A stretch of 44,494 nt of DNA from a virus, in the IMG/VR virus record IMGVR_UViG_3300031566_000095. One strand, given 5' to 3'. Both the position numbers and the translations under genes were made by a program. Below are positions 128 through 33,717 of this stretch, piece by piece. Under the pieces are notes generated by a model. The model was not told where the DNA came from and did no database searches. It saw only the letters and a list, made by a program, of their open reading frames with translations. Positions within the stretch are counted from its first letter, which is position 1, and each line of letters begins with the position of its first letter.

Positions 128-301
128 TACGAGATTTGTGATTTTCCATTTTGCATTGCGATGGGCTAAAAGCACGCGATAGCAGTCCCGGCAGGGATAG
201 CGATTCGGCTGCCCTTCGCCAACGTCCACAAAGCCCGGCTCGCCGCATCGGCAGGCGTACCGAGGTTTCGCTTCGCGGTTTTTCTTGGCCACAGATTTCA
301 C
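29..301 (-). CDS. Small putative zinc-ribbon protein (90 aa), uncertain
   Basis: ORF track. The GTG start lies inside a repeat element. Cys pairs ACRCG...PCRDC. The stop overlaps the ParB-like start (ATGA) across the circular junction. The C-terminal third crosses a C9 tract and looks non-coding. Confidence 0.3.
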   Translation of the reverse strand: MKSVAKKNREAKPRYACRCGEPGFVDVGEGQPNRYPCRDCYRVLLAHRNAKWKITNLVGGGTRRRGRMKQEPPMNADKRNLGTTHERKQL

Positions 302-342
302 CGTTCTTTCTCAGCCACAGAGGACACAGAGATCACAGAGAT
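287..342 (+). repeat. Extended 9-mer element, plus orientation
   Basis: ggccacagatttcac..tcagc CACAGAGGA CACAGAGAT CACAGAGAT. About 90% identical to 33140..33197. Confidence 0.9.
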
Positions 343-375
343 TGTTGGATTATTTTTCGGTAATATTTTCGTGCT

Positions 376-831
376 TCAAACTCCAGGCAGCAGGGCCGGC
401 AGCTTGCCCGTGCTCATCATCGTCTGCAATTGGTCCTGCTGAGCCTCGTAGATCGTTTGGCCGCCGCGCATGGGCAGGCAGATGTCCCCGTAGAACTCGT
501 GCTCGAGGGAACGCAGGCCGATCGACACGGCGACCAGCTTGGCCTTGAGCAGAAGACAGAACTCCCGCATCCGCTGCCGGCACGCCTGTTCCCAGGCCAG
601 CAGCGAGGCGTTAACTTTGCGGTGGCGCCCGGTTGACGTCTTGCAGAAGTCATGCCGGGCCGGCATGTCCAGCTTCATCTTGATCGGCACGCCCTTGAGG
701 ACGAACGCCACGAACGCACAGTCGCCGTCCCAGCCGCTCATGCACTTCTCGGCGCCCGCACGCCGGAGCAGCCGCGTCACTTCCTGCTGAGACGATTCAA
801 CCGATACCGTTGTCGAGCGAGCATACTCCAT
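376..831 (-). CDS. Hypothetical phage protein (151 aa)
   Basis: Clean ORF. The ATG directly follows a 9-mer element (CACAGAGAAAGATG). No motif I can name. Confidence 0.7.
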   Translation of the reverse strand: MEYARSTTVSVESSQQEVTRLLRRAGAEKCMSGWDGDCAFVAFVLKGVPIKMKLDMPARHDFCKTSTGRHRKVNASLLAWEQACRQRMREFCLLLKAKLVAVSIGLRSLEHEFYGDICLPMRGGQTIYEAQQDQLQTMMSTGKLPALLPGV

Positions 832-833
832 CT

Positions 834-887
834 TTCTCTGTGTCCTCTGTGCTCTCTGTGGCTAAAGATTTATGATTTATGATTTTC
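834..887 (-). repeat. Composite junction cassette: 9-mer triplet plus heptads
   Basis: Plus strand reads ttctctgtg tcctctgtg ctctctgtg gctaa (834-865), then gatttat gatttat gattttc (866-887). Confidence 0.9.
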
Positions 888-1118
888 AACGGCGATAGTT
901 ACTGGTCCTTCGATTCGCGGTTCCATATCTTTTAGAACAATCATGGTTTCCCGCAAAACCCTGGCCGCCCAGTCGCAATCGTCACGCAGTTGAGCGAATC
1001 CTAATCCTCTCAGATTTCCTACCCCATTGAGAGTTTCCTGATCCATGACCCGCATTACCTTTATCACGCGAGCTTCTACGTTGTTTAGATCACTGATTAC
1101 CCCTTTAATAGTGGCCAT
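870..1118 (-). CDS. Hypothetical protein (82 aa)
   Basis: ORF with SD AAGGAAG 7 nt upstream of the ATG. The stop lies within the heptad array. Confidence 0.6.
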   Translation of the reverse strand: MATIKGVISDLNNVEARVIKVMRVMDQETLNGVGNLRGLGFAQLRDDCDWAARVLRETMIVLKDMEPRIEGPVTIAVENHKS

Positions 1119-1974
1119 GTATTTCGCTTCCTTTCTCTGTGTCCTCTGTGCTCTCTGTGGCTAAAACCTTCGACGTTCTCGGCGGCTCTTTTTCGATCAC
1201 CTCGCGGATCGAATCCTTCCAGTGGATGAACGGACGGCCGCTCAGATGGCCAACCATCGCGCGGACAAATTCATCGCTTTGGGCGGCCTTGAGCGGGTTG
1301 ACGTATTGCCGGATCTGTTCGTCCGTCGCACCCGAGAGGTCCACGCGGCTCTCCCAGCGCCGCAGCTTGCCGATCCAGAAGCCGCCCGCCCCACGATCGA
1401 AAGGGGGCCGCGAGAGATAAGGCCAGCAGGCTTGATAGACATCCGGGGCAAATTCATCCAGATAAGGCTCGCACGAGACGCTGGTGCAATAGCCCTCGAA
1501 GTAGGCCATCGAGAGGCTCTTAATCCGCTCCTCAAAACACGGCGCCCCCGGCTCCCAGAACTTGAGCACGTTGTCGGCCGTCGAACCAATCGTGAATCGA
1601 AATGCCACGCGATGCTGAAAACCCTTCAGGGCCTCGACCAGCAACGCCGTGACGTTCATCGACGGCTTGCTGACGATCAGCACGCGGTTGCCCGCCTCGA
1701 GCAGCTTTCGCAGAACCACCAGACAGGGTCGCAAAAATTCCAGCGTAATATTGCTGGCACTTTGGAACATGACAACGCCATCGAGTTTTCGGCGTTGTTT
1801 GACAACTTCCGTAGTTCTAAGATGGGGCGTATTCCATTCATCGGCTGTCTTTATGCGACCGAATCTCAATGCCATCTCCCGACCATAGCAATATCGGCAG
1901 CCTCCGGAACATCCTGAAAGTATAGTTACATTGTGAGCAGCCCATTCTTTTGTTCCACTGATTTTCTTGCTCAT
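1105..1974 (-). CDS. Radical SAM protein (SplB / DNA-photolyase-like by motif)
   Basis: N-terminal GCSGGCRYCYG is the CxxxCxxC radical-SAM cluster motif. 289 aa. The C-terminal tail reads through a 9-mer element (ATESTEDTEK). Confidence 0.8.
   Translation of the reverse strand: MSKKISGTKEWAAHNVTILSGCSGGCRYCYGREMALRFGRIKTADEWNTPHLRTTEVVKQRRKLDGVVMFQSASNITLEFLRPCLVVLRKLLEAGNRVLIVSKPSMNVTALLVEALKGFQHRVAFRFTIGSTADNVLKFWEPGAPCFEERIKSLSMAYFEGYCTSVSCEPYLDEFAPDVYQACWPYLSRPPFDRGAGGFWIGKLRRWESRVDLSGATDEQIRQYVNPLKAAQSDEFVRAMVGHLSGRPFIHWKDSIREVIEKEPPRTSKVLATESTEDTEKGSEIHGHY
1133..1164 (-). repeat. 9-mer triplet element
   Basis: ttctctgtg tcctctgtg ctctctgtg gctaa on the plus strand, immediately upstream of the SD of the 870..1118 gene. 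Confidence 0.9.
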
Positions 1975-2654: not shown

Positions 2655-2707
2655 GCTGTCGCTCCGTTTCCTATTTTCTCTGTGCTCTCTGTGTCCTCTG
2701 TGGCTAA
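2599..2707 (-). repeat. Composite cassette: heptads (2599-2631) and 9-mer triplet (2676-2707)
   Basis: gatttat gatttgc gatttgc gatttat gattg, and ttctctgtg ctctctgtg tcctctgtg gctaa. Here the heptads lie inside the 5' end of the HNH ORF. Confidence 0.9.
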
Positions 2708-2792
2708 ACAAAATCCTGCCCCGCCCGCGGACCCTTTTCACGCGGGCAGGGCTTGCGTGGAGAGACAATTCATATCCTCGCCTTCGGCCCTC

Positions 2793-3128
2793 TCAGGCGC
2801 TCACCGCATCCGGCGGGACAATCGGCTTGTCGCGGCTCTCGGCGGCGAACAGCTTGACGGACGTCAGCGCCGCGAAGAGCAGCCGCGTGATGAACTGCCG
2901 CTGCATCGCGATCATCGAGACGTTCTGCTGATTGAGCTGCCGGAAATCGTCGGCCAGCAATTGGAGCGCTGCGACGTGCTCGGCCGTGGTAAACGTCGCC
3001 GTCAGGGCGTCATACGCCTCGGCAATCCGGCCGTCGGTCAACTGCAGGATGAACTCGGCGAGCTGCTCGTCGGTGATCGCCCCGGCGATCTGCATGAGCA
3101 GCGTTTGAAATTCTTCTTTGACGTTCAA
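2793..3128 (-). CDS. Hypothetical helical protein with hydrophobic C-terminus (TTG start proposed)
   Basis: The long ORF 2793..3362 overlaps the lipoprotein gene. The plausible part starts at a TTG that overlaps the upstream TGA (TTGA). Confidence 0.4.
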   Translation of the reverse strand: MNVKEEFQTLLMQIAGAITDEQLAEFILQLTDGRIAEAYDALTATFTTAEHVAALQLLADDFRQLNQQNVSMIAMQRQFITRLLFAALTSVKLFAAESRDKPIVPPDAVSA

Positions 3129-3373
3129 GGCGCGGCCCTCCCGTCCAGGGCGTCCACGATCTGCCCGAGTATGTCGTTGGCGGCCGCCAGCCCGTCTCTG
3201 CAGGCGTTCGGATCGCCGGCCTGGCACGCCCGATTCAGGGCCTTGACGTGGATCGCGGCCATCCGCGTCCGCGTGGCATACCACGGCGCCATCTGTACGC
3301 CCGAACAGCCGGCGAACAGCAACAGCCAGGCCATCAGCAGGGCGAAATACCACAACTTCCATTTCGGCTTCAT
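3125..3373 (-). CDS. Small lipoprotein (82 aa)
   Basis: Signal peptide with lipobox LLLFAGC. SD GAAAGGAG upstream. Confidence 0.7.
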   Translation of the reverse strand: MKPKWKLWYFALLMAWLLLFAGCSGVQMAPWYATRTRMAAIHVKALNRACQAGDPNACRDGLAAANDILGQIVDALDGRAAP

Positions 3374-3391
3374 AAGAGGACTCCTTTCGTA

Positions 3392-3440
3392 GATTGATTA
3401 TTTATGATTTACGATTTTCGATTGACGATTGTTGATTTAT
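3392..3440 (-). repeat. Heptad array (about 7 units)
   Basis: gattgat tatttat gatttac gattttc gattgac gattgtt gatttat on the plus strand, between two genes and just upstream of an SD. Confidence 0.9.
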
Positions 3441-3916
3441 CCGCCCGTGATGGCTGGTTCATCCGCCTTTGGTGGTTTGATCTCGGCGTCAGGCCTCGGC
3501 CAGGGTCTGGGTGGTTCTACTCTATTCCTCGGCATCGGGGGACAATCGGTCACGATCGGCAGTCCGAACCGCCCGAATTCAGGATCGGTGAGCACTGTGG
3601 TGGATCTGTTTGGCTTGCCGTTGCTCAAGGCTGTCGTGCCTTTGAACATGTCGTAGCCGCCGCCGGCGGCCAGACCCAGGACCGCGCCGGCGACGAGATA
3701 ATTCTCGACGCCGCCCAGACCGAATGCGAGCGCGCACAAGGCCATCCCGACCATCGGCCATAAGGGTTTTTGAATCGCATCGCTCAGGCGGGCCCAGCCG
3801 CCGACGCAGGCCTTAATGAACTGAATGGCGTAGGCCACAAAGCCCGCGATCACGAGCATCGTCGGGGTGATCGTGACCTCGAGCGAACTGATTGCATTGG
3901 ATAGATCGGGCAGCAT
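3437..3916 (-). CDS. Multi-pass membrane protein, holin-like by position
   Basis: Three hydrophobic segments (MLVIAGFVAYAI, LWPMVGMALCALAFGLGG, LVAGAVLGLAAGGG). SD AAAGGAG. Confidence 0.6.
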   Translation of the reverse strand: MLPDLSNAISSLEVTITPTMLVIAGFVAYAIQFIKACVGGWARLSDAIQKPLWPMVGMALCALAFGLGGVENYLVAGAVLGLAAGGGYDMFKGTTALSNGKPNRSTTVLTDPEFGRFGLPIVTDCPPMPRNRVEPPRPWPRPDAEIKPPKADEPAITGG

Positions 3917-3935
3917 AAGAGACTCCTTTCAAAAA

Positions 3936-3999
3936 GATTGACGATTTGCGATTTTCGATTGACGATTTTCTCTGTGTCCTCTGTGCTCTCTGTGGCTAA
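3936..3999 (-). repeat. Composite cassette: heptads plus 9-mer triplet
   Basis: gattgac gatttgc gattttc gattgac gatt, then ttctctgtg tcctctgtg ctctctgtg gctaa. The TAG stop of 3996..4706 lies inside TTAGC. Confidence 0.9.
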
Positions 4000-4706
4000 T
4001 CCTGTCTTTCTTCCGCCGCGACGGTCGCGGCCATGCCCTTATCTTTGCGTCCTTTCTTGCCTTTTTTATCCGTGCCCTCTGTGTCCTCTGTGCCCTCTGT
4101 GGCTGAATCCTCTGCGGCTTGGCTTTTCTCGGCGGCCTTGCGCTCCGCCTCGGCCAGCAGCGGGCGCTCGGCATCGGCGATGCCCTTCTCGGCCAGGTCC
4201 TGCAGGTCCTCCTCCCATCCGTATACCTCCACGACGTCGCGGAAATCCTGAATGTCGTGCTTGCGGATCCGGCACACGATCCGCCCGCGGTCATCCCGCT
4301 TGGGCTGACCGTTGGTATCGAGCGACAATTGAGCGTGCCCCAGCTCGTGGAAGATCAACCGTTCTTTCTGTTTTTCGCTGAAGGTCGGCCAGGCGTCCTC
4401 GTTGAGCAGGATGATGAAATCCCATTCATCCAGCTCGCGGTCAAGATCCCCGCGTTTGCGGCACTGGCCGAGGGTCCGTCGCCCGTCGGCGTCCGGCCGC
4501 CAGCCCAGCCGCCAGGCGATGCCGATCTTGACGTCCGCCAGGTCCGCGCGCCGCGTCTTGATCAACTCCTCCATGATGCGATAGGGTTCCGTGACGTTTC
4601 CCGTATGTTCGATCCGCCGCTGAATGAATTTCACCGTGACCCGTTTGCGTTTCTGGCCCGAACCTTTCGGCCGGCCGCGTTTAGAACTCCCAGGTTTTCT
4701 GCCCAT
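3996..4706 (-). CDS. Phage metallopeptidase-like protein (HExxH)
   Basis: FHELGHA zinc-binding motif in the IAWRLGW...GQCRK...DFIILLN context typical of phage putative metallopeptidases. The acidic/basic tail crosses a 9-mer element. Confidence 0.7.
   Translation of the reverse strand: MGRKPGSSKRGRPKGSGQKRKRVTVKFIQRRIEHTGNVTEPYRIMEELIKTRRADLADVKIGIAWRLGWRPDADGRRTLGQCRKRGDLDRELDEWDFIILLNEDAWPTFSEKQKERLIFHELGHAQLSLDTNGQPKRDDRGRIVCRIRKHDIQDFRDVVEVYGWEEDLQDLAEKGIADAERPLLAEAERKAAEKSQAAEDSATEGTEDTEGTDKKGKKGRKDKGMAATVAAEERQD
4066..4106 (-). repeat. 9-mer element variant (inside the 3' end of a CDS)
   Basis: tatccgtg ccctctgtg tcctctgtg ccctctgtg gctga. Confidence 0.85.
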
Positions 4707-5466: not shown

Positions 5467-5538
5467 TAGCGGGGGCCGGATTCGAACCGGCGTCCTCCTG
5501 GTTATGAGCCAGGCGTGTAGCCGCTACACTACCCCGCG
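5467..5538 (-). tRNA. tRNA-Met (anticodon CAT), initiator-like acceptor end
   Basis: Gene strand: CGCGGGGTAGTGTAGCGGCTACACGCCTGGCTCATAACCAGGAGGACGCCGGTTCGAATCCGGCCCCCGCTA. Folds as a cloverleaf by hand (7/4/5/5 bp stems, TTCGAAT T-loop). No encoded CCA. Confidence 0.85.
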
Positions 5539-5542
5539 ATAA

Positions 5543-5572: not shown

Positions 5573-5625
5573 CTTCAAAAAGGAGGCTACTGACAAAACT
5601 GACAAAGAAGATGCCGCGTTCATCG

Positions 5626-5841
5626 TTAATCCAAATCCTTCTGGAAGCCGCGATAAGACAGCCTCTCGCCGATCATGCGAAAGACCCGCTCGCACTCTCC
5701 ACAATAGAAATCCTCGCGCCACGAGCGGTAGATAATCTTAGGCATGGTGCAGCCCGGGCACATATCATCCTCGAGCAGGGCCGCCTGCTCGACGGCCGTC
5801 AGCCGGCCGGGCTGGCGTTCCGTTGTACTCTTCGTAGTCAT
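5626..5841 (-). CDS. Zinc-ribbon protein (71 aa)
   Basis: CPGC...CGEC. ATGA overlap with the upstream gene. Confidence 0.6.
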   Translation of the reverse strand: MTTKSTTERQPGRLTAVEQAALLEDDMCPGCTMPKIIYRSWREDFYCGECERVFRMIGERLSYRGFQKDLD

Positions 5842-6158
5842 CCCTGACGCTCCTGTTCTCGCCGCTCATATTCGGCGTTTACCTCATGCCGCCAGCGGTC
5901 CAGGACGGCCCGCGCGACGTCCGGCTTGTTCCGGATCGCGGCCGATAGAATCCTCTGAGTCTCGTTTACGACCAGCTCGGCGTAGAAGGCCGCCGGCATG
6001 GATTTGGGCCGGCCGGCCTTGCTGTCATAGATGATCGCCAGAACGGTACATTTCAAATCGAAGTCCACATCGCCGACGCCGTGCAGGGCGTTGAACAGCT
6101 CATCGAGGTTTTCGAGCCGCCCGAGCTCGCGGGCCGGCTCCCGGCCTTCTTCTGTCAT
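5838..6158 (-). CDS. Hypothetical protein (106 aa)
   Basis: Start trimmed to the ATG at 6158 (SD AAAGGAC). The upstream part of ORF 5838..6488 overlaps a better ORF. Confidence 0.6.
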   Translation of the reverse strand: MTEEGREPARELGRLENLDELFNALHGVGDVDFDLKCTVLAIIYDSKAGRPKSMPAAFYAELVVNETQRILSAAIRNKPDVARAVLDRWRHEVNAEYERREQERQG

Positions 6159-6457: not shown

Positions 6458-6774
6458 GATCGCTCCTCCTGGCCGTAGGCCCAGTCATCCCGGCTGGCCG
6501 TTTCGAGCTGCGAGAGCTTCACAAACGGCAGATCGGCCATATAGATCGCGTGCTTGCTGGCGAAGTTGCCGGCGTGCTCGGCGCAGTAGAGCTTCTGGCC
6601 GCTGACGGCCGCCTTGCCCCGCATGTGGTCCCACTCGCACACGTACTCCGCCGCCTTCTGGCAATGAGCCGCCGCACACTTCGGCGAATAGGCCTCCCGG
6701 CTCAGCCGGGCCGTTCTGTGATGCCAACTCTTTTTCGTCTTTCGTCTATCGTCGGGCATCATTCGTGGATTCAT
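6454..6774 (-). CDS. Cys/His-rich hypothetical protein (106 aa)
   Basis: ORF track. ATGA overlaps at both ends. Confidence 0.6.
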   Translation of the reverse strand: MNPRMMPDDRRKTKKSWHHRTARLSREAYSPKCAAAHCQKAAEYVCEWDHMRGKAAVSGQKLYCAEHAGNFASKHAIYMADLPFVKLSQLETASRDDWAYGQEERS

Positions 6775-7325
6775 CCGCTTTGCGCTCTGACCTTTTTGTT
6801 TTGAGTAATCATATTTCCGGTTTTGGTATGATCGAAATTTGTTCGTCCAAACTTGCCAAAATACTTCCTTGACATCTCATCGTAGCCTTTGGCGGCATCA
6901 ATCTCGGATACAAATAGACCCAAAGAGATTCGTCGCCTCTCTACCTGAATGCGAGCGCACCATTTTGCTTCATCCCGACCCCGATAAACGCCTTTAAATT
7001 GGGAAGATACAATATGCTTGGCATACACCCGGTGTGGTCTTTGATTCTGAAGATTTTGGGTCTTACTTGCGATTCTCAAATTGCTTCTCTGGTTATTAAG
7101 ACCATCGAGATCAATATGGTCAACATCCATGCCGACGGGTGGTTGTAAGATTTCCCGGTGCATGCGGATTGTTGTTCTCTTCCCATTTTTGCGGGATGAC
7201 GTTCTTGATGCGTAATAAGTATTACGGCCTTTCTCAGAATGCCATTTCCATTGATTCAGCCATTCATAATCGCCATCATCGACAATGGCGACTTTCTCTT
7301 TTGTGAGTTGAATTTTTTTGCTCAT
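6771..7325 (-). CDS. HNH endonuclease fused to an AP2 DNA-binding domain
   Basis: DHIDLDGLNNQRSNLRIASKTQN (HNH). SQFKGVYRGRDEAKWCARIQVERRRISLGLFVSEIDAAKGYDEMSRKYFGKFGRTNF (AP2). Start trimmed to 7325 (SD GGAGGG). AT-richer than its surroundings. Confidence 0.85.
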   Translation of the reverse strand: MSKKIQLTKEKVAIVDDGDYEWLNQWKWHSEKGRNTYYASRTSSRKNGKRTTIRMHREILQPPVGMDVDHIDLDGLNNQRSNLRIASKTQNLQNQRPHRVYAKHIVSSQFKGVYRGRDEAKWCARIQVERRRISLGLFVSEIDAAKGYDEMSRKYFGKFGRTNFDHTKTGNMITQNKKVRAQSG

Positions 7326-7349
7326 CAGCTTTGCCCTCCGGCCTTGGGT

Positions 7350-7390
7350 GATTTCTGATTTATGATTTGCGATTGTCGATTGTCGATTGT
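7350..7390 (-). repeat. Heptad array (6 units)
   Basis: gatttct gatttat gatttgc gattgtc gattgtc gattgt. Confidence 0.9.
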
Positions 7391-7410
7391 TCCGCCGGAG
7401 GCGGATTGGC

Positions 7411-7506
7411 CCTCTCTGTGTGCTCCCTCGACAGGCTCGGGACGGCGTCTGTGTGCTCCCTCGACCAGCTCGGGACGGCGTCTGTGGCCCAAAACTCTGT
7501 GGCTTG
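7411..7506 (-). repeat. 9-mer element variant interrupted by a 33-bp tandem direct repeat
   Basis: tctgtgtgctccctcgacaggctcgggacggcg (7415-7447) is repeated at 7448-7480 with 2 mismatches. Flanked by ctctgtg / tctgtggc motifs. Confidence 0.85.
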
Positions 7507-7650
7507 GGATGAACAGAAAAAGAAGCGCCAGCAGCGGAGAAACAAAGTTGCGACAGAGCTTCAGGAACTGCCGGCGCTTGAGGGCTTTTGCAAAAAGGAT
7601 TCAATCGGTTACTCTGTCGCATTCTAATTCTCCTGTATTTCATTTTCTGT

Positions 7651-10048: not shown

Positions 10049-10082
10049 AATTTACTATTTCTGATTTATGATTTATGATTGT
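10049..10082 (-). repeat. Heptad array
   Basis: aatttac tatttct gatttat gatttat gattgt. Confidence 0.85.
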
Positions 10083-10293
10083 TATCCGCGTCCAGGGCGG
10101 CGGCGCTGATCCGGCGCAGCTCGTAGATCGCCTGGGCCGTCGCCGTCAACTCTTTGCGGCAGTCGGCGACGCGGCCTTCCAACGCCAGCAGTTCGAGGCT
10201 CAGCACCTGATACCGCCGCCAGCAGGCCATGACCCGCTCGTGCAGCTCCCGGACCTTGTCGAGCGGACACACCAGGGCCACCGGCGAGGGCAT
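10066..10293 (-). CDS. Small coiled-coil protein (75 aa)
   Basis: Start trimmed to the ATG at 10293, because the upstream part of the ORF is the inverted 9-mer element. Confidence 0.5.
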   Translation of the reverse strand: MPSPVALVCPLDKVRELHERVMACWRRYQVLSLELLALEGRVADCRKELTATAQAIYELRRISAAALDADNNHKS

Positions 10294-10300
10294 CGATTCT

Positions 10301-10386
10301 TTAGCCACAGAGGGCACAGAGAACACAGAGATATTTTCACCTTTGTCCGGATCCATCATTCAATCGACAATCGTAAATCATAAATC
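10301..10386 (+). repeat. Composite cassette in plus orientation
   Basis: ttagc cacagaggg cacagagaa cacagagat (10301-10332), a spacer, then caatcga caatcgt aaatcat aaatc (10359-10386). Confidence 0.9.
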
Positions 10387-10391
10387 TCCCG

Positions 10392-10413
10392 CCCTGCCCC
10401 TATCAGGGCAGGG
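10392..10413 (-). terminator. GC-rich hairpin overlapping the stop of 10403..10810
   Basis: ccctgccc-ctatca-gggcaggg. Followed on the gene strand by a partly T-rich heptad array. Confidence 0.4.
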
Positions 10414-10810
10414 ATGGCCCCTGGCTGGCCCCCGGCTGCGAGATCGGGGGCCGGGCTGGCTGTGCCTGGCCCTGGTACAGAGAGAGCAGCCAAGCCGTCA
10501 CGGCGATGATGGCCGCCGATAGAACCACCCTCAGTAGGCCCAGCCAGAAACTCCGCCAGCGGTCGGTGGACGATTTAAGGCTGTCTTTGCACAGCAGAAG
10601 CTTTTCGACTTTATACGTCAGGCCAGTTCCATTGTCATCGCCGTAGAGCGTCTTCTTGAACGCCGAGACATGGCCGTCGAGCGATTTGTGGGCCTCGGTA
10701 TGGACGGCCTTGAATTTCAGAAGCTCAGTACACTTGCCGTCGACTTCATCGAGCTGGAGCTTGATATCCTTGACCACGCCTAAGATCACGTCGAGTTCAG
10801 CCATGTTCAT
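10403..10810 (-). CDS. Tail-anchored membrane protein (135 aa)
   Basis: Helical N-terminus. C-terminal TM segment FWLGLLRVVLSAAIIAVTAWLLSL. SD AAGGAA. Confidence 0.65.
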   Translation of the reverse strand: MNMAELDVILGVVKDIKLQLDEVDGKCTELLKFKAVHTEAHKSLDGHVSAFKKTLYGDDNGTGLTYKVEKLLLCKDSLKSSTDRWRSFWLGLLRVVLSAAIIAVTAWLLSLYQGQAQPARPPISQPGASQGPSLP

Positions 10811-10819: not shown

Positions 10820-10888
10820 TTAGCCACAGAGGGCACAGAGCGCACAGAGTTTCAAAATCAGAAATCATAAATCGGAAATCGCAAATCC
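10820..10888 (+). repeat. Composite cassette in plus orientation
   Basis: ttagc cacagaggg cacagagcg cacagagtt, then tcaaaatcagaaatcataaatcggaaatcgcaaatc. Confidence 0.9.
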
Positions 10889-10889
10889 C

Positions 10890-21717: not shown

Positions 21718-21740
21718 TTAGTCACAGAAAACACAAAGAC
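21718..21740 (+). repeat. Degenerate 9-mer element
   Basis: ttagt cacagaaaa cacaaagac. Confidence 0.5.
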
Positions 21741-23294: not shown

Positions 23295-23639
23295 TCAGTG
23301 ACATTCGTAAGTTGCCCAGATGCCGTTGGCTTTGACGATCCGGGCCAGGTGCATCGTCCGGACCTCCGCCCCCGGGCGAGGCGGAACACTAACCGTCTGG
23401 CTCGAATCGAACTCAGCGGTGGCAATGCCGACAACCGCGTCATTGGCCACCTTGATCTGGACTTGCGGACTGCGGTGCCGAATGATCGGGGGGACCTCGG
23501 CGTCATCCTGGACGTACTTGACAATGGCCGTCACGGCCCGGTCCAGTGTCCCCGGCTGATAGACAATCGGCTGGCCGAACGCCGCCAGAAACGCCGCCCG
23601 CCCGGCCGTCAACCATGATGTCTCGAATGTCGTCGCCAT
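23295..23639 (-). CDS. Head-tail adaptor candidate
   Basis: 114 aa, first gene after the capsid gene. Confidence 0.5.
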   Translation of the reverse strand: MATTFETSWLTAGRAAFLAAFGQPIVYQPGTLDRAVTAIVKYVQDDAEVPPIIRHRSPQVQIKVANDAVVGIATAEFDSSQTVSVPPRPGAEVRTMHLARIVKANGIWATYECH

Positions 23640-27954: not shown

Positions 27955-29459
27955 TAGTCTTTCCCTCCGTTGGATTGCGGAGACTGTTTTTGTGGCGTCA
28001 GGACTATGCCGCTGTCGCGGATCGTTTCTTCCTCCTTCACCCGCTCCGGCCAGACCTCCTCGGCCCAGTCCAGCCCGTCCTGCCGGGCGACGATCTCCGT
28101 CCGCGTCGTCGTGCCGTTTTCGAGATGAATCTTGTCGGCCTGGGCCTCGCGGTACGGATCGACGTAAGGCCATCGCTTCAGGTAGATCTGATGGGCCGCC
28201 CAATCGTCACGCTCCTTGAGCTTCCCGCGGTCGATGAGCTGACCGATTTTCCAGAGCCACAACCGCCGCACCAGGGGTCTCACCACCAGTTCCTGCTCGT
28301 CGCGCCAGAAGGCCCGCGCTTCATTGTAGGCGAATCGCCCGTTCATAAACGTCGCGTGGCTGAAGTCGCCCGTAGTCAGCATCAACGGCAGGCACAGCGG
28401 GCCACCGACGAACATCAACATTCTCATCACGAACGGATCGAACGCCGCGGCCGGCCGGGCCGCTCCGATTGCCTCATAACTTTCACCCACCTCGGCATCG
28501 ATCAGAGTGCCGGGTTGAATTTTCACTTTCTCTCGATTAAAATCATCTTTCTGATTCGATCCCATTTCGCTCGCCGGTATCCCCCCGAGCCCGCTAAAAG
28601 CCTTCGCGTCATACGTTTTTGCCACTATCGGGAAGCAGGCATTGATTTTCGCGGCGACCAACTCGGCCTCAATATAATTGAACAAGTAATCGATATAGGG
28701 AACGGCGCTGGTCAGCTTGGGCTCACCCCGGGACTGATCGAACCGTTCCGGATCGAACATATGATGGACCCGTTCGGCAGACCGGCAATGCCAATCATGG
28801 GGCTGGATATAACCCCATTTGTTTGGCTTGCCTAAAAAATAACCAACGATGCGGGTAGTCTCTTTGTCGAAGACCACACCGTTACTGATCGTATAACGTT
28901 TTGGATCGAGTTTATCCTCGGGAATTTTTGCACCATAAGGTGTGCCGCAGCATTCACCTTGTAATGCTTCCGGACCATAATCGTGAAACAGAGTAAAGAC
29001 ATCGCCATCCTGAATGTAGCGGTAATAACTCTTATGGATATAGGCATGAAAATTGAACCGGCCCGTGACGTCGCAGGGCACATCGATCATCTCGGCCTTG
29101 ACCGCCTGCTCGGCGGCCTCGTTCCATCCCTTATCGGCCGTGCGAGCCTGGATCCGCGTCGAGGTCCCGACGACGTTCGTGGCGATCTTGCGAAACAGCC
29201 CCTTGACTAATGGATTGTTGGAAGACAAATCTCGGGCGATCTGACGTAAATCATCGAGCGTCCTCTCACTCAAGTCCGCATCGCCTGCGCGCGGACCCGC
29301 CTTTCGTTTCGGACGCAATCGGTCTTTATCGAGGACATCATATTTCAAGCGACTGGCCTGGCGCTGGACGACCAGGTCGGGCGAAAGAACGCTGAGCGGA
29401 CGATCGATCCATTCTGACATCCACCGCCAAAAACCGCTACGTTTCCACTCTCGGATCAT
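27954..29459 (-). CDS. Portal protein (lambda-type)
   Basis: 501 aa. Position after terminase and gpW. LRQIARDLSSNNPLVKGLFRKIATNVVG resembles lambda-family portals. Confidence 0.85.
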   Translation of the reverse strand: MIREWKRSGFWRWMSEWIDRPLSVLSPDLVVQRQASRLKYDVLDKDRLRPKRKAGPRAGDADLSERTLDDLRQIARDLSSNNPLVKGLFRKIATNVVGTSTRIQARTADKGWNEAAEQAVKAEMIDVPCDVTGRFNFHAYIHKSYYRYIQDGDVFTLFHDYGPEALQGECCGTPYGAKIPEDKLDPKRYTISNGVVFDKETTRIVGYFLGKPNKWGYIQPHDWHCRSAERVHHMFDPERFDQSRGEPKLTSAVPYIDYLFNYIEAELVAAKINACFPIVAKTYDAKAFSGLGGIPASEMGSNQKDDFNREKVKIQPGTLIDAEVGESYEAIGAARPAAAFDPFVMRMLMFVGGPLCLPLMLTTGDFSHATFMNGRFAYNEARAFWRDEQELVVRPLVRRLWLWKIGQLIDRGKLKERDDWAAHQIYLKRWPYVDPYREAQADKIHLENGTTTRTEIVARQDGLDWAEEVWPERVKEEETIRDSGIVLTPQKQSPQSNGGKD

Positions 29460-29819: not shown

Positions 29820-30050
29820 TTATTTTTCGACGCTCTTGAAGGTTAAATCGCACTTTTTGCAGCGATGGCGGCGGATCGGAAGATCGTCGCTGCTGTAAAC
29901 CGGACAATCATCCGAGCCACATCGCGGGCATTTGACCTTGATGTAATAGACCACCGGGACGCCGCTTTCGTCCGTCGGCGGCGGCCGTCGCCTTCGGGGC
30001 GGAGGATCCGGCAACCCTAAATCCGGCGTGTTATTCCAGAAATCAGCCAT
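29820..30050 (-). CDS. Zinc-ribbon protein (76 aa)
   Basis: CPRCGSDDC...CKKC; Pro-rich N-terminus. Confidence 0.6.
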   Translation of the reverse strand: MADFWNNTPDLGLPDPPPRRRRPPPTDESGVPVVYYIKVKCPRCGSDDCPVYSSDDLPIRRHRCKKCDLTFKSVEK

Positions 30051-30054
30051 AAGA

Positions 30055-30119
30055 GATTGACTATTTTCTATTGACTATTGACTGTTTTTCTCTGTGTCCT
30101 CTGTGTTCTCTGTGGCTAA
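30055..30119 (-). repeat. Composite cassette: heptads plus 9-mer triplet
   Basis: gattgac tattttc tattgac tattgac tg, then ttctctgtg tcctctgtg ttctctgtg gctaa. The terminase TAG stop lies in TTAGC. Confidence 0.9.
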
Positions 30120-32125
30120 AGCGTCGGTGTTCCGTCCCAGTAGCCGCTGGATTCACCTGGACGTATTTGCTTTCTCTTAATGCGACCGACCGTCTCAATA
30201 TAATCGATATCCCGCAAGGAAAAGACCCCGGCCAACTCGGCCGCCAGGTCGCAATAGACGTTCGCGTCCCAGGCGTGGTTCTCGCGGAAGCCAGTCTTCT
30301 TGACCCACGTCACGATCTCGCGACCGGTGCGGCCCCGCTTGACGAGCTGCGCCTCGCTGGCTAATTGCCTGGCGATTTCGCCCGGCAGATCGTGCGGCAG
30401 GTGCATGAAGCCCGGCCCGGGCGATTTCTCTTTGTCGTACAAGACTTGCCAGAGCCGGTCCTTGCCCATATCGACGTTCAGATCGAAGCGCTTCAGGGCC
30501 TTGCCGATCACGGGCCGGACCTTGTACAGGCTGCCGTGCATGCGGTCCCGGCCGTAACCCATGACCGGAATCACAGCCCCTTCCGGGAACCGAAGGCAGA
30601 AATCATAGACGACCGTCGATTCCTCATCCCGCTCGACGCGCTGGTACCGGCAGTCCACCGCCGCCCGGCTGGCGTAATATTTGACGCTCGGATCGGCCGC
30701 CGAGACCCATTCGCTGCGGAGGTAGGACTCGACCAGGTCCCAGTTTTCTGGCCGGCCCGTATGGCCCGTCTCCAGACGGCCCGCCCAGAGCAGCCATTGC
30801 TCGTTTCGGAATCCGTAGCCCTTCGTCGCGATCCAGACGCAATCGGGCTGCACGTCGATGCCGTGACAGATCATCTGGACCTTGCGGGGCACAAGCCGCT
30901 CTCGCATCGAATAGTCGCCCACGCGGCTCTGCAGGTGCGTCAGGCTCGTCTCTCGCTCCCGCTCCTCCCAGGCCCGGGCGGCCTGGTTGTTCCAGAAATT
31001 TCGAAGCGGCAGGATATTGCCGGCCTTGCGATGCTTATCGGCGATGACCCACTCGGCGGCCAGTTGATCGACCGTCGTAAACATCGGATCGACCAGGACG
31101 GCCGGAACGCGAAGGGCCTTGTGCGTCGAATCGTCCCACGGCCCGACGATCTCGCCATCGGCCCCGATCGAGCAGCCTTCGGGACAGGCCCGGCAGCCGG
31201 AGATGGACGCCTTGCGCTCCAGCTCGCTCCACTTGACGCCGCACCGGGGGCAGACGTACCAGGCGTGCCGGCGGCCGCCCTGGGTATATTGGCGCGGCTC
31301 CAGGAACGCCCCCTCTTTGGTCTTATCCAGCTTGACGTGCTCGAACATCGCCTCGTGAAACGCCCCGCAATCCGGGCACGGGATATGGATCGACCACTGC
31401 TGGCAGGCGGAGAAATTCTTATCGGCCAGATCCCCTTTGTTTTTCGGGCTGGTGATATAGAATTGCTTGCTGACCGATTCGTAGGTCCGGGTGCCGGCGC
31501 CGAGCAGGCTGATGGCGTCGGTGTCCTCCTTGATGTCCTGGACCCACAGGGCCACCTCGTCGCCTCCGATAAACCGGGACGGATCGTCCGAGAGCGTAAT
31601 CGGGCTCGTCGGCCAGGCCAGGATCAGCTGCATATTGTCCAGGTCCGTCGGCTCGCCGATCAGCAGGTTGCGAATGTCACCGCCTAAATGCCGAAGGATA
31701 CGCGGCGAGTTCTCGAAGGCGGGCTTGAGCCGCTTAATTCGCTTTTTGACCACCTTCTCATCGGGCAAGACGATTTTCATCGGACCCGGGTCCACGTCGA
31801 TGCAGTAACCCATCCAGCCGCCCAAAATGACGCTCTTGCCCGTCTGCCGCGCGGCATAAATCCAGATCACCCGCGTGGTCAAATCGCACAGCCAATCAAT
31901 GACGATCCGCCAGAAGGGCGTGATCGATAACTGCCAGGGCCCTTTGATGCGACTGGATTTCTCCGGCAGGACGTAATACTGCTGCATCCAGTCCAGCATG
32001 TGCTGCCTGTGGCGAGGGACCAGCACCTCCAGGACCTCCTCGGCCATCGGCATCGGGCGGAAGTACTGCAATGCCTCGCGTTGCAGATTTATGATTTCTG
32101 ATTTTCTATTTTCGATTTGAATCAT
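30116..32125 (-). CDS. terL: Terminase large subunit (GpA family)
   Basis: YYVLPEKSSRIKGPWQLSITPFW, Walker A-like AARQTGKS, and Cys pairs CPDCG/CPRCG as in lambda gpA-type terminases. Confidence 0.9.
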   Translation of the reverse strand: MIQIENRKSEIINLQREALQYFRPMPMAEEVLEVLVPRHRQHMLDWMQQYYVLPEKSSRIKGPWQLSITPFWRIVIDWLCDLTTRVIWIYAARQTGKSVILGGWMGYCIDVDPGPMKIVLPDEKVVKKRIKRLKPAFENSPRILRHLGGDIRNLLIGEPTDLDNMQLILAWPTSPITLSDDPSRFIGGDEVALWVQDIKEDTDAISLLGAGTRTYESVSKQFYITSPKNKGDLADKNFSACQQWSIHIPCPDCGAFHEAMFEHVKLDKTKEGAFLEPRQYTQGGRRHAWYVCPRCGVKWSELERKASISGCRACPEGCSIGADGEIVGPWDDSTHKALRVPAVLVDPMFTTVDQLAAEWVIADKHRKAGNILPLRNFWNNQAARAWEERERETSLTHLQSRVGDYSMRERLVPRKVQMICHGIDVQPDCVWIATKGYGFRNEQWLLWAGRLETGHTGRPENWDLVESYLRSEWVSAADPSVKYYASRAAVDCRYQRVERDEESTVVYDFCLRFPEGAVIPVMGYGRDRMHGSLYKVRPVIGKALKRFDLNVDMGKDRLWQVLYDKEKSPGPGFMHLPHDLPGEIARQLASEAQLVKRGRTGREIVTWVKKTGFRENHAWDANVYCDLAAELAGVFSLRDIDYIETVGRIKRKQIRPGESSGYWDGTPTL

Positions 32126-32183
32126 TTCTCTGTGCTCTCTGTGCTCTCTGTGGCTAATTTATCCGCGTCCCTCTGTGGCTTAA
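32086..32183 (-). repeat. Composite cassette: heptads plus 9-mer triplet plus an extra unit
   Basis: gatttat gatttct gattttc tattttc gatttga, then ttctctgtg ctctctgtg ctctctgtg gctaa, then tttatccgcgt ccctctgtg gcttaa. Confidence 0.9.
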
Positions 32184-33105
32184 TCGCTTCGTAAAACTCG
32201 GCCAGCTTTGTCAGGGCCCGATCCGAGAGCTTCAGTTCCGCCGGCACGTGCTGCAATTTCGCCATCACCTCATCTCGGAAGTCCTCGAGCCGCGAGACGA
32301 TCTCTTCGCGGGGCTGTCCAAATACCCGGTTGGCCAGGTCCGCTATGGCGTTGAAGGCGTTCACGACGTTCTGCATTTCGGCCATCTGGAAACCGAGGAT
32401 ATCTCCGCGATTGACGAGCTCCCCCTGCTCTTGATCCAATTTCAACAACATGTGCTTCACCTTGACGTCTTGAAACGGAGAAAGCGGGCCGACCGCGTCC
32501 CGGCCGCGCACCGCCTTCTTCAGCTCGAAGTCGCCCCACCAGGCGATTGCGCGGTGCAGATCGAACGTGCCGTCGATATTCTGAGGCAGGCCCTTCGTCG
32601 TGTACCAGTCGTGGATCGTCTCCCGCCGGACGCCGAACAGCTCGGCCGTTTGATTGACCCCGACCCGGCTGAAATTCGCCGCCCCCAGCTCGCCCGTCTC
32701 CCGCTGCCGGTCCACCGCCCATTTGTCCATCAGCTTGATCGCCTGGACGTTGCCCTCGCCGGCCGTCTTGACCAGGGCCTCGCGATTGGCGATCCAGCCG
32801 TTGACCCGGGCCGTCTCCCACAACTCATTCGCCTCCGCGTCGCCGTCGAGAAAATCCCGCAAATTCTGAGCCGTCTCGAACTGGCTAAAGCCCAAATCTT
32901 TCAATCGCCTGGCCGCCTCGTAGATCATCGCCTTCGGCGCCAGCTCCACCAGGTACCGCAGTAGCCGCCCGCGGTCATACGCCTTGCGGAGCCGCGGATG
33001 CCGCGCGAAGTACTTCGCCAGGTTCGGCCCGATCCCCGACCGAGCATCGGCCACGGCCAGATCTTGGGATTCAAGGCCAAGCCGCTGGGCGGAGGCCTCG
33101 CTCAT
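32122..33105 (-). CDS. Putative terminase small subunit (HTH)
   Basis: Directly upstream of and overlapping terL. VNQTAELFGVRRETIHDWYTTKGLP is a Nu1-like HTH. Start trimmed to the ATG at 33105. Confidence 0.55.
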   Translation of the reverse strand: MSEASAQRLGLESQDLAVADARSGIGPNLAKYFARHPRLRKAYDRGRLLRYLVELAPKAMIYEAARRLKDLGFSQFETAQNLRDFLDGDAEANELWETARVNGWIANREALVKTAGEGNVQAIKLMDKWAVDRQRETGELGAANFSRVGVNQTAELFGVRRETIHDWYTTKGLPQNIDGTFDLHRAIAWWGDFELKKAVRGRDAVGPLSPFQDVKVKHMLLKLDQEQGELVNRGDILGFQMAEMQNVVNAFNAIADLANRVFGQPREEIVSRLEDFRDEVMAKLQHVPAELKLSDRALTKLAEFYEAIKPQRDADKLATESTESTEK

Positions 33106-33197
33106 TTGCGATTTGCGATTTCTGATTTTCGATTTTTTCTCAGCCACAGATTTCACGGTTTTTTCTTAGCCACAGAGGACACAGAGTTCACAGAGGA
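33105..33197. repeat. Heptad array (33105-33137) plus extended 9-mer element in plus orientation (33140-33197)
   Basis: catttgc gatttgc gatttct gattttc gatttt, then cagccacagatttcac..ttagc cacagagga cacagagtt cacagagga. Confidence 0.9.
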
Positions 33198-33267
33198 TTT
33201 GGTTGCCGATACAAATCCCGTCATCGGTCCCGCCTCTTTTTTTGCTTCGCGTTCATTCGTGGTTCCT

Positions 33268-33299
33268 TTCTCTGTGTCCTCTGTGTTCTCTGTGGCTAA
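33268..33299 (-). repeat. 9-mer triplet element (inverted partner of 33166-33197)
   Basis: ttctctgtg tcctctgtg ttctctgtg gctaa. Confidence 0.9.
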
Positions 33300-33398
33300 T
33301 TTATCCGTGTCCCTCGGCAGCTCGATCGCCTCGAAGTTCCGGTCGCCACATTTCGGGCAGGGTCGATCCGTGTTTTCGATCTCGTGCCCGCAGCCCAG

Positions 33399-33683
33399 TC
33401 ACCACCAAACGGTTCGACTGCCGTTGGGCATCTTGAGTTCGGCGATCGCCGCCTCAATTCGCCGCCGTTCCGCCGGGTCGGGCATTTCCGGAGTCGGACC
33501 CAACAAGTCACGATAGGCCGCCTCTCCGAGGACTTTTGTCATTGCTTGCTTGAATATTCTATGCGTACAGTGATATTCTTTGAGCAAAGCCGTCACCGTC
33601 ACCTGCCCGGCTTCCAGGCGCCTCGCAATGTTCCCGGCATCCGTGAAAATCCGTTCTGAGTTATCGTCATTCCATCTCGGCAT
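33399..33683 (-). CDS. Hypothetical protein (94 aa)
   Basis: The ATG directly abuts a 9-mer element. Ends at a TGA that is followed in frame by a zinc-knuckle-like sequence. Confidence 0.6.
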   Translation of the reverse strand: MPRWNDDNSERIFTDAGNIARRLEAGQVTVTALLKEYHCTHRIFKQAMTKVLGEAAYRDLLGPTPEMPDPAERRRIEAAIAELKMPNGSRTVWW

Positions 33684-33685
33684 TT

Positions 33686-33717
33686 TTGTCTGTGTCCTCT
33701 GTGCCCTCTGTGGCTAA
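33686..33717 (-). repeat. 9-mer triplet element
   Basis: ttgtctgtg tcctctgtg ccctctgtg gctaa. Confidence 0.9.

Follow-up and report, generated by a model that had tools for sequence, protein, structure and literature searches.

What is a short repeat doing at one gene junction after another in a phage genome, and how is it related to the same sequence in the genomes of bacteria? The question arises from IMG/VR virus record IMGVR_UViG_3300031566_000095, a stretch of 44,494 nucleotides that is analysed here over its whole length (referred to as the window). The window belongs to a tailed phage. Its family-matched long open reading frames (ORFs) all lie on the minus strand, and minus-strand ORFs span 92% of its length. 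The repeat (referred to as the element) is 32-35 nt long and reads (T)TTAGC-(CACAGAG-RR)x3, mostly followed by A or AAA. It thus consists of a 5-nt flank and three nonamer units, each with a CACAGAG heptamer as its core and a two-nucleotide spacer. The copies very probably form a local subfamily of a modular intergenic repeat family that crosses phyla and is neither a promoter nor a terminator.

Thirteen copies at gene boundaries

The window was scanned for CACAGAGNNCACAGAGNNCACAGAG with up to three mismatches, and 100 dinucleotide-preserving shuffles served as control. There are 14 matches at 13 loci in the window and none in the 100 shuffles. The core loci are 316, 10306, 10825, and 33171 on the plus strand and 836, 1135, 2678, 3970, 4077, 30090, 32128, 33270, and 33688 on the minus strand (copies are named below by these numbers and the strand); locus 4077- is matched in a second, overlapping register at 4068. 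A stricter scan included both the core and the 5-nt flank (26 specified positions). All 13 copies have zero or one mismatch in it and nothing has two to seven, while 20 shuffles gave one match in total. An earlier reading made from the letters alone (the sequence-only reading) had counted at least 14 copies. The 13 near-perfect loci are exactly those that it had listed, but its degenerate copy at 21718-21740 is weak, with more than seven mismatches, and was not recovered by the scan; it is therefore excluded from the count. The flank is TTAGC in 11 copies and TCAGC in two. A or AAA follows 10 of the 13 copies, namely all nine on the minus strand and 316+ (A). In nine copies the purine strand coincides with the gene strand, and the other four are inverted.

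The copies are concentrated between genes. The midpoints of 11 of the 13 fall outside ORF interiors, where 27% would be expected (binomial P ~3e-5), and the remaining two are within the last 30-110 nt of ORFs, in C-terminal tails. This check had been set beforehand for the location at gene boundaries given in the sequence-only reading, and it bears that location out. On the gene strand an ORF starts within 2-16 nt beyond eight copies and within 53 nt beyond 11; the two copies with no start within 53 nt each precede another copy. Three copies stop 2-4 nt short of an ATG, and AAAGGAA, which resembles a Shine-Dalgarno sequence, often comes directly after a copy. Several copies contribute to the end of the upstream gene, as its stop codon or as a short tail of hydrophilic residues. 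For at least two of them (3970- and 30090-) translation stops at the TAG of TTAGC, and the upstream ORF runs through copies 1135-, 4077-, and 32128- in one frame, which gives a tail of the form ATE-x-TE-x-TE. Solo copies, together with tandem arrays of a second module (AAATCNN), fill the stop-to-start gaps in the accessory and packaging regions.

ORFs had also been said to cross the element in several frames. The crossing is real. Plausible ORFs, however, use one frame, and the other peptides listed come from presumed spurious ORFs; the judgement that the signal lies at the nucleic-acid level was right. Repeats of this kind create many small spurious ORFs (with TEDTE, HRGHR, and SVSSV peptides) and extend other ORFs falsely, a point to watch when phages from metagenomes and metagenome-assembled genomes (MAGs) are annotated.

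Along the window, the first copy (311-340, plus strand) is inverted relative to the genes and reads TCAGC-CACAGAGGA-CACAGAGAT-CACAGAG. The next two, 836- and 1135-, are identical over 35 of 35 nt. The former (836-865, minus) has TTAGC and three units, with AG and GA as spacers, 4 nt before the ATG of ORF 376..831. The latter (1135-1164, minus) lies in the last codons of ORF 1105..1974 (frame ...LATESTEDTEK...), 16 nt ahead of the ATG of ORF 870..1118, and has syntenic copies in the related loci L252, L254, and L255. The copy at 2678-2707 (minus) precedes an HNH_3 endonuclease gene and is kept in L251 with one spacer change; a GC-rich hairpin with a T-run is seen by eye ahead of it, which the terminator scan did not call. 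Two copies are associated with ORF 3996..4706. One (3970-3999, minus) provides its TAG stop codon and the other (4065-4106, minus), made of TCAGC and three units with a fourth variant unit CACGGATAAA, is in its C-terminal tail. Two inverted copies follow. The copy at 10301-10330 (plus) reads (CTCTGTGNN)3-GCTAA on the gene strand, 7 nt before an in-frame ATG of ORF 10066..10359, and the copy at 10820-10849 (plus) is followed on the gene strand by GCTAAAAAAAAGGAATGAAC-ATG of ORF 10403..10810.

Five of the loci are found around the packaging genes. The TAG of the copy at 30090-30119 (minus) is the stop codon of the large terminase gene (30116-32125). The copy at 32128-32157 (minus) is in the last codons of the TerS-like ORF 32122..33156, with the first ATG of the terminase ORF 2 nt beyond the copy; syntenic copies are found in L239, L240, and L246. 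The sole inverted pair of the window (33160-33305) consists of 33270-33299 (minus) and 33166-33195 (plus) with a 74-nt spacer. The last copy (33688-33717, minus), whose third core is CACAGAC, is 4 nt before the ATG of ORF 33399..33683 and has a syntenic copy in L240. In addition, the interrupted variant that the sequence-only reading placed at 7411-7506 is real. It covers 7414-7506 (minus) and has the form CACAGAG...CACAGA[27 nt]CACAGA[27 nt]CACAGAG. A 27-nt module (CGCCGTCCCGAGCNNGTCGAGGGAGCA) sits at 7454-7480 and 7421-7447, twice replacing the spacer between cores, and the related locus L250 has a plain three-unit copy at this site.

Solo copies show no sign of structure. Folded with 20-nt flanks they are at the level of shuffled sequences (z from -1.6 to +1.6), and the bases of the element are unpaired. 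As RNA, the inverted pair 33160-33305 forms a hairpin of -57.1 kcal/mol (z = -8.3). It is followed on the gene strand by GCUAAGAAAAAA, which does not make it an intrinsic terminator (a GC-rich hairpin with a U-run). Consensus scans for sigma-70 promoters and for intrinsic terminators gave no match at any copy and window totals at the shuffle level, and no sigma-70-like hexamers at the right spacing were seen at the copies either in the scans or by eye. The statement of the sequence-only reading that the element resembles neither a sigma-70 promoter nor a hairpin terminator is therefore upheld. Against Rfam 15, at the gathering score, the window and 12 genomic loci that have copies of the hairpin type gave matches to tRNAs and to nothing else. 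Several known sites were compared by eye and rejected. The DnaA box (TTATCCACA) does not fit, as its position 4 is R in the element and never T. The P1 ParB box A was dropped as well, although two copies each have an ATTTCAC beside them. CIRCE (controlling inverted repeat of chaperone expression), parS, the T7 epsilon enhancer, Chi, 16S rRNA complementarity, and lambda Int arm sites have a misfit at a defining position or a match that is too short.

The same module in other viruses and in cells

The pattern TTNRC+(CACAGAGRR)x3 was searched for in IMG/VR contigs and in species-representative genomes; counts from both scans refer to the matches listed. It occurs in at least 118 other viral contigs and at least 120 genomes, from about 15 phyla among the matches listed, while the chance expectation for the three-unit pattern in the genome collection is estimated at about 0.3 matches. 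Listed carriers include Planctomycetota, Acidobacteriota, Chloroflexota, Beta-, Gamma-, and Deltaproteobacteria, Bacteroidota, Cyanobacteria, Verrucomicrobiota, Firmicutes, Spirochaetota, Gemmatimonadota, and several candidate phyla. Cultured carriers were found by BLAST against PLSDB: Anabaena cylindrica PCC 7122, Nostoc, Bacteroides finegoldii, and Pseudoalteromonas shioyasakiensis. In Gemmatirosa kalamazoonensis (also in PLSDB) there are 12-15 places per replicon of about 1 Mb. B. finegoldii has its copies in a housekeeping-gene setting, as hairpins that follow an S4-domain gene (L279, 25905-26045) and eno (L279, 39755-39850). No match was found in 5,426 complete genomes of E. coli, and GenBank phages gave only six weak matches, none from a characterised element-bearing phage. 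Searches of the literature by motif, by pseudo-peptide strings, and by exact sequence returned no relevant description; the exception is a B. fragilis primer that contains two units by chance, just upstream of BF2782. The build of three nonamers with a TTNRC flank is apparently undescribed in Rfam and the searchable literature.

Some carriers show further arrangements. In P. shioyasakiensis CP076682 (L278, about 439.1-439.5 kb) a hairpin-type element is found in a tandem duplication of about 250 bp, where an intergenic block is repeated. In pANACY.02 of A. cylindrica PCC 7122 (L277, 1500-1690) four CACAGAG units with periods of 8 and 9 come after a P-type ATPase gene. This array is directly before an unannotated 26-codon hydrophobic ORF (MSHQVMFLGSLIGFGFLLGVISGVLV), which is followed by a CGCAGAT-type sister module. 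MT838283 and other 'Bacteriophage sp.' records of about 5-7 kb (H17-H21, human faeces) have up to three element-matching places each. Genomes of the size of Microviridae from human faeces thus carry the element, implying that the family also occurs in very small gut phages.

The two best-represented groups among the 80 listed genome matches are Planctomycetota with 17 and Beta- and Gammaproteobacteria with about 18, and one Planctomycetaceae MAG also carries AATC heptamer arrays. A hint of a Planctomycetota-like host, given in the sequence-only reading, agrees with these counts but is only weakly informative: the motif is in too many phyla, so no host can be assigned from it.

When 144 viral and 170 genomic listed copies are aligned by their cores, a common flank rule (T-T-N-R-C) and purine-rich spacers appear. 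A stop codon in the flank was tried as a conserved feature and rejected, being at the expected position in only 46% of the viral and 28% of the genomic listed copies. Of 299 arrays with at least three units, 284 have exactly three; among relatives of the phage, which were not selected by the pattern, there are 25 three-unit, 12 two-unit, and one four-unit arrays. In cells the copy is usually one arm of an inverted pair that forms a long hairpin, while in phages it is usually solo. A downstream inverted partner is found for 103 of 153 genomic listed copies (median spacer 53 nt), against 11 with an upstream partner, and the usual cellular form is TTNRC(CACAGAGNN)3...(NNCTCTGTG)2-3GYNAA. Paired copies make up 35 of 146 in the viral listed set. 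The mismatches between the hairpin arms have no wobble-consistent pattern (52 mixed, 18 and 28 one-sided).

The genes that flank copies are convergent in 17 cases, divergent in 10, and tandem in 58. In cells, some copies have convergent genes on either side, and others come after a stop codon but ahead of a separate terminator, which means that the latter are transcribed. Orientation also differs between the two settings. The mRNA of solo cellular copies reads (CUCUGUGNN)3-GYNAA-N10-50-AUG in 18 of 34 cases, against 3 of 34 in the opposite orientation, whereas among solo phage copies it is mostly the purine strand that is found in the mRNA (37:17 in viral contigs, 9:4 in the window).

In an all-against-all BLAST of 1,227 ORFs within 3 kb of copies, only phage structural families recur. 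The largest families all come from viral loci and none recurs across cellular genomes (within 3 kb, 120 genomic loci); in particular, no transposase gene recurs within 3 kb of genomic copies. Target-site duplications were looked for in 67 convergent pairs as direct repeats of 3-8 nt; none showed at any offset, and the palindromic dinucleotides that were seen belong to the inverted flank. Only about 18 of the 118 listed viral loci with the element have a protein close by in common with the window; these proteins are almost all packaging or structural ones or common enzymes, and no shared small protein or regulator was found among the listed element-bearing phages.

A host-derived intergenic repeat was the closest of the options named in the sequence-only reading, in that the same module occurs in about 15 phyla and in unrelated viruses. 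The copies of the window are nevertheless a lineage-specific subfamily. The TTAGC flank is found in 11 of the 13 window copies and in only 6 of 145 listed copies from other viral contigs. Its commonness here and rarity elsewhere indicate that the copies multiplied inside the phage lineage and were not acquired singly from a host.

Junction differences between relatives and what the element may do

Relatives were collected through the terminase (11 viral loci, 72-79% amino-acid identity) and through the metallopeptidase ORF 3996..4706 (minus; 27 metagenome loci, some with up to 99.9% nucleotide identity over kilobase stretches). Those compared span 70-99.9% nucleotide identity. Their junctions show that copies have been gained, lost, swapped for sister modules of the same build, or invaded by a small module. 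At the terminase stop codon, the window and L240 have a copy whose TAG serves as the stop in both; L241-L244 and L247 have a plain TAA and then a ribosome-binding site, and L246 has heptamers only. After the orthologue of ORF 23295..23639 the window reads TGA-gtgttct-ATG with no module, while L240, L245, and L246 have heptamers and then different modules. This second module is (CTCTGTGNN)3 in L246 and consists of 10-mers (CAGCGTNNAT) in L245; L247 has TTAAC(CACGAATGAA)3 at the junction. The 27-mer of the interrupted variant recurs in L254, where it sits inside a copy at a different junction but in the identical position.

Copies are likewise seen to flank the genes by which close relatives differ. 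Copy 3970- stands where L250 and L251 carry a gene of about 130 amino acids, with both flanks conserved. An 82-aa ORF (870..1118, minus), for which no relatives were found in viral contigs, lies between the identical direct copies 1135- and 836-. Its junction has one copy and no gene in L254, and in L252 and L255 the upstream copy is kept and followed by a sister module and other genes. Module arrays enclose the HNH gene 6771..7643, and another insert takes its place between the same boundaries in L250. Sequence conservation at these junctions is uneven. In 11 syntenic pairs the 21 core positions are 97.8% identical and the four spacer positions 68.2%, while the flanking DNA is mostly 70-80% identical (up to 96% in the closest relatives, L250 and L251).

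These observations are tentatively read as those of a portable junction module that works like the PeSL (promoter early stem-loop) cassettes of T4-type phages, looks like REP (repetitive extragenic palindromic) sequences or small dispersed repeats (SDR), and has its heptamers read by some factor. In this proposal the copies would act as portable junction cassettes. Homologous recombination between copies that are identical over 35 nt, either in one genome or across genomes that infect a cell together, would cut out units of an element plus a gene and insert them again, and would in this way spread both the element and accessory genes. A host-encoded factor (likelier than a phage-encoded one) would read the three heptamers and keep the core invariant. 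The two parts of the proposal differ in strength. Junction comparisons make it somewhat probable that the modules serve as recombination joints in this phage lineage. As for a specific reader of the three heptamers, an invariant heptamer, a free spacer, and a fixed number of three units imply one, and the case for and against its existence is evenly balanced. The reader would probably be host-encoded, because few of the listed element-bearing phages share non-structural proteins with the window.

Several points weigh against this proposal. Mosaic breakpoints in a compact phage genome always fall at gene boundaries, and the copies sit there too, so their coincidence is weaker evidence than it may seem. 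Recombination at the copies is seen only as differences between the junctions of relatives and not directly. Furthermore, 35 nt is short for efficient homologous recombination without a phage recombinase, and none was identified in the window. No candidate reader was found among the neighbours of cellular copies or among the listed element-bearing phages. Four of the 13 copies are inverted, and solo cellular copies prefer the opposite orientation to the downstream gene (the 18 against 3 of 34 given above); one simple function does not cover this contrast in orientation between phages and cells. Copies in relatives were found with up to three core mismatches, which inflates the contrast between core and spacer, and the contrast could stem from gene conversion among copies instead of a reader. 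Conversion within a genome cannot account for core identity across phyla. Recombination alone also leaves the cross-phylum identity of the heptamer unexplained.

Other explanations account for part of the evidence. One of them takes the element as an array of duplex binding sites, at which a host or phage protein of the RHH (ribbon-helix-helix) or AP2 type would bind cooperatively and control transcription across junctions, as do stoperators of Cluster A mycobacteriophages or repeat readers of the omega/MetJ type. An invariant heptamer, a free 2-nt spacer, and exactly three units suit such an array; both orientations are equally conserved, as is expected for duplex recognition, and cells show inverted pairs at variable distance. 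Omega-type RHH repressors read heptad arrays, and the AATCNNN arrays that adjoin the element resemble these in kind. Genome-wide repressor sites at junctions have a precedent in the stoperators, although stoperators (PMC9283540) have one orientation and are sites of the phage's own repressor, and neither property is found here. The periods of 8, 9, and 10 nt in sister arrays with the pattern CAC-R-GA are also easier to match with a reader that is flexible or acts on single strands than with a rigid binder of duplex DNA. No candidate protein was found. The HNH_3 proteins of the window gave no AP2 or RHH match at E<0.01, the listed element-bearing phages have no common regulator, and the cellular copies have no recurrent neighbour. 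An operator of a phage AP2 or RHH protein, as was first suggested, is unlikely, with only about 18 of 118 listed viral loci sharing any protein with the window near the element and with cellular copies among housekeeping genes, and a duplex array in general is rather unlikely. An element acting at the RNA level, as an unstructured spacer or a standby or processing site before the ribosome-binding site, with the hairpin form masking or stabilising between cistrons, is quite unlikely. It would explain why a start codon comes within 2-53 nt beyond 11 of the 13 copies, often after AAAGGAA, why every predicted fold leaves solo copies unpaired (with z mostly 0 or higher), why the purine strand is favoured on phage mRNA in the ratios given above, and why 10 of 12 heptamer arrays from a regex scan are A-rich on the gene strand. 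The 18 of 34 solo cellular cases with (CUCUGUGNN)3-GYNAA 10-50 nt before start codons and the transcription of some cellular copies point the same way. The orientation preference is opposite in phages and cells, however, and four window copies give pyrimidine-strand mRNA with cores that are equally perfect. The arm mismatches, with no wobble pattern, give no sign of selection for RNA pairing, Rfam has no match, and an unstructured state needs no conserved heptamer.

Selfish miniature mobile DNA is an improbable explanation. Here a dedicated enzyme of the REPIN/RAYT (REP doublet and REP-associated tyrosine transposase) or IS200/IS605-like type would move the element, TTNRC would be the target or cleavage site, and the phage would derive no function from it. 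Single-strand transposases use a fixed target, which the conserved 5-nt flank recalls, and Y1 transposases need a hairpin, which solo copies do not have. Presence and absence vary among relatives, a lineage-specific subfamily has been amplified, and a 27-nt module is nested within copies. The inverted doublets of cells also resemble REPINs (PMC3116915), but REPs are species-specific and the core of the element is the same across phyla. There are no target-site duplications, no recurrent transposase gene near copies, and no decayed copies in the window, and intact cores are kept at syntenic junctions across about 25% nucleotide divergence. Lastly, the element could be a promoter for a host or phage RNA polymerase holoenzyme of non-canonical specificity, one of the options in the sequence-only reading. 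Repeated intergenic elements just upstream of genes fit this, and such repeats are promoters in halovirus HF2 (PMC8707807). Copy 2678- is also placed between a terminator-like hairpin and the next gene. A promoter is nevertheless very improbable: the copies have no sigma-70-like hexamers at the right spacing, 4 of 13 are inverted, three end 2-4 nt before an ATG and some are inside ORF ends, some cellular copies are between convergent genes or upstream of terminators, and the scanned ORFs of the window yielded neither an RNA polymerase gene nor one for a sigma factor.

A broader idea can be added to the junction module proposed here. The element may be the cis-site of an undescribed trans-acting system, patchily distributed over many phyla and used by their phages, which is unlikely. 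Such a system could be a single-strand or duplex reader at cistron boundaries, or an integron-like recombination without attC or IntI, and CACGAATGAA, CACGGATTAA, CACAGATTAA, CGCAGATGAA, and CACGGAGA would be specificity variants of it. If the junction-module reading is true, phages would have a simple route for exchanging accessory genes through junction cassettes that are common within and between genomes, and the PeSL idea would extend beyond T4-type phages to a module that is neither promoter nor terminator. A module of fixed length that is conserved from Bacteroides to cyanobacteria, Planctomycetota, and Proteobacteria would also call for a reader, and the cultured carriers allow testing.

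Neighbouring modules, phage genes, and known systems

The second module of the window, tandem AAATCNN heptamers in arrays of 3-6 units, is found beside most copies. An (AAATCAT)x3 array (865-885, minus) is directly upstream of copy 836-, and (AATCNNN)x5 (2597-2631, minus) is between copy 2678- and the body of the HNH gene. The array at 3934-3968 (minus), between copy 3970- and the ATG of ORF 3437..3916, is kept in L250 and L251, and a six-unit array (7348-7389, minus) comes after the interrupted element; homology with L250 stops right after it, at the point where an HNH gene stands in the window. On the plus strand, the array at 10361-10388 adjoins copy 10301+ (core 10306) and that at 10855-10889 is directly after copy 10820+ (core 10825). 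Around the packaging genes, an AGTCAAT-type array (30056-30083, minus) lies between copy 30090- and the ATG of ORF 29820..30050, arrays at 32084-32118 (minus) come after copy 32128- within the longest terminase ORF, and an array at 33108-33135 (minus) is downstream of the inverted pair on the gene strand. Two junctions have arrays without the nonamer element: that of ORFs 3437..3916 and 2793..3362 (3404-3438, minus) and, with two arrays (40778-40851, minus), that of the HNH_3 gene 40814..41761 and the DnaD-like gene. Heptamer arrays vary in length; the lone indel in 9 kb between contigs of more than 99.8% identity is one heptamer unit. They are rare among the listed matches (3 of 120 genomic and 7 of 118 viral loci). 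The longest terminase ORF opens 2 nt after copy 32128- and would translate the heptamer array (MIQIENRKSEIINL..., 32084-32125). The corresponding array of L246 (about 5590-5690) comes before the start codon, so the terminase of the window probably starts further downstream.

Fragments of sister modules adjoin several window copies. One 13-mer (CCACAGATTTCAC) is at 289-301 (plus), just upstream of copy 311+, and again at 33144-33156, upstream of copy 33166+; another fragment, CACGAATGAA, is at 33252-33261 (minus), after copy 33270-. In a tandem-repeat analysis of all fetched loci, sister arrays share the core pattern CAC-R-GA with periods of 8, 9, and 10 nt (e.g., CACGGAGA, CACAGAGNN, CACGAATGAA, CACGGATTAA, CACAGATTAA, and CGCAGATGAA), and at least two sister modules are built as TTAAC plus three units. 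The 27-nt module (CGCCGTCCCGAGCNNGTCGAGGGAGSA) is found between CACAGA and CACAGAG at two junctions in two phages (window 7421-7480 and L254 about 6040-6075). It looks like a member of another widespread family of small repeats, the source of pseudo-peptides of the 'PELVEG/LDKLG' type.

Among the family-matched genes of the window are a lambda-type portal (27954-29459), a gpA-type large terminase (30116-32125, minus), a TerS-like gene (32122-33156, minus), a homologue of tail protein J (11317-14598), a ParB-like gene, and a C5 methylase. A DnaD-like helicase-loader gene is at 39585-40817. Three HNH_3 endonuclease genes are clear (1971-2768, 6771-7643, and 40814-41761), and a weaker HNH match (33755-34789) adjoins the packaging genes. 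Two of the HNH_3 genes lie directly downstream of nonamer and heptamer modules, and L250 lacks the gene at 6771-7643; the HNH_3 genes are probably free-standing homing endonucleases inserted at module junctions. A tRNA gene is at 5467-5538 (minus; Rfam, 63 bits). Nucleotide identity between the window and L251 falls from 99.9% to about 88% beside it, indicating a mosaic boundary there. About 2 kb at 37200-39300 has a 5-nt periodicity, (N-G-C-A-A)n on the minus strand (e.g., GCAAAGGCAAAGCAGAGCAACGCAATGCAAAGG), with Tandem Repeats Finder periods of 5, 10, 15, 16, 26, 36, and 62. This strand is almost without stop codons, and as a result long ORFs overlap in all frames and on both strands. Being beside the DnaD-like gene, the region could be an origin with iterons or an odd low-complexity gene.

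In its way of working, the proposed module is best compared with PeSL. In T4-type phages, experiments have shown that modules are shuffled by way of PeSL cassettes, which form mini-circles of an element plus a gene (PMC2839356). The window modules, like them, are short conserved cassettes at gene junctions in plastic regions of phage genomes. Indels and replacements between close relatives are bounded by the modules, and a gene between two direct copies can be lost or gained. The mini-circles are a feature of PeSL, and the likeness here is one of junction comparisons. A PeSL consists of a sigma-70-like promoter and a terminator stem-loop, both with experimentally shown activity (PMC2839356, PMC4122927), whereas the window module has neither. 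PeSLs are also specific to a phage lineage, unlike the present module, which is found in cells of many phyla as well.

In appearance the element is closer to dispersed repeats. Like REPs and REPINs (PMC3116915), it is an extragenic repeat of 20-40 nt with many copies per genome and no target-site duplication, and cellular copies are mostly inverted doublets that form hairpins between genes, as does one pair in the window. A REP unit, however, is an imperfect palindrome, while a solo copy here is three direct repeats without self-complementarity. REPs are also tied to RAYTs and to a species, whereas the present core crosses phyla and has no RAYT-like neighbour within 3 kb of 120 genomic loci. 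Heptamers of the STRR (short tandemly repeated repetitive) type and SDRs were reportedly described in cyanobacteria by Elhai et al. in 2008. These too are dispersed repeats of about 21-27 nt beside or inside tandem heptamer arrays, encode no protein, and differ in presence and absence among related genomes, as the present modules do. The family studied here has copies in cyanobacteria (the Anabaena and Nostoc replicons). The cyanobacterial repeats reportedly have other sequences and were described within that group, in contrast to a sequence that spans phyla and phages.

Phages have other short sites at junctions. In Cluster A mycobacteriophages, the repressor that the phage encodes has 13-bp sites, the stoperators, which have one orientation relative to transcription (PMC9283540), and the SAS (start-associated sequence) of Cluster K is a 13-nt motif just upstream of start codons (PMC3203893). 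Both resemble the element as many short asymmetric sites in small intergenic gaps near start or stop codons. They are confined to one phage cluster, whereas the module here is in unrelated phages and in cells, and, unlike stoperators, it occurs in both orientations (nine on the gene strand and four inverted). Integron attC arrays are similar in that co-oriented small genes are split by a repeated site at which genes are gained and lost, and the cellular form of the element is an imperfect inverted repeat of 60-260 nt, often with ...AAC and GTT... at its outer ends. An attC site, though, is a hairpin with R and L boxes, extrahelical bases, and AAC/GTT, while window copies are solo and have AGC/GCT; 12 of the 13 have no partner arm, and the AAC flank is found in only part of the wider family. 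In addition, no integron integrase was found among the window ORFs scanned, and cellular copies are single sites among housekeeping genes and not arrays. A miniature inverted-repeat transposable element (MITE) of the cut-and-paste DDE type was also rejected, as the terminal inverted repeats of the 67 convergent pairs come without a target-site duplication. Since no description of the sequence was found in Rfam or the searchable literature, it is rated as an apparently undescribed repeat of a known general sort. It does not belong to the attC sites, MITEs, stoperators, or known RNA families, and its place is with the small dispersed intergenic repeats and junction cassettes.

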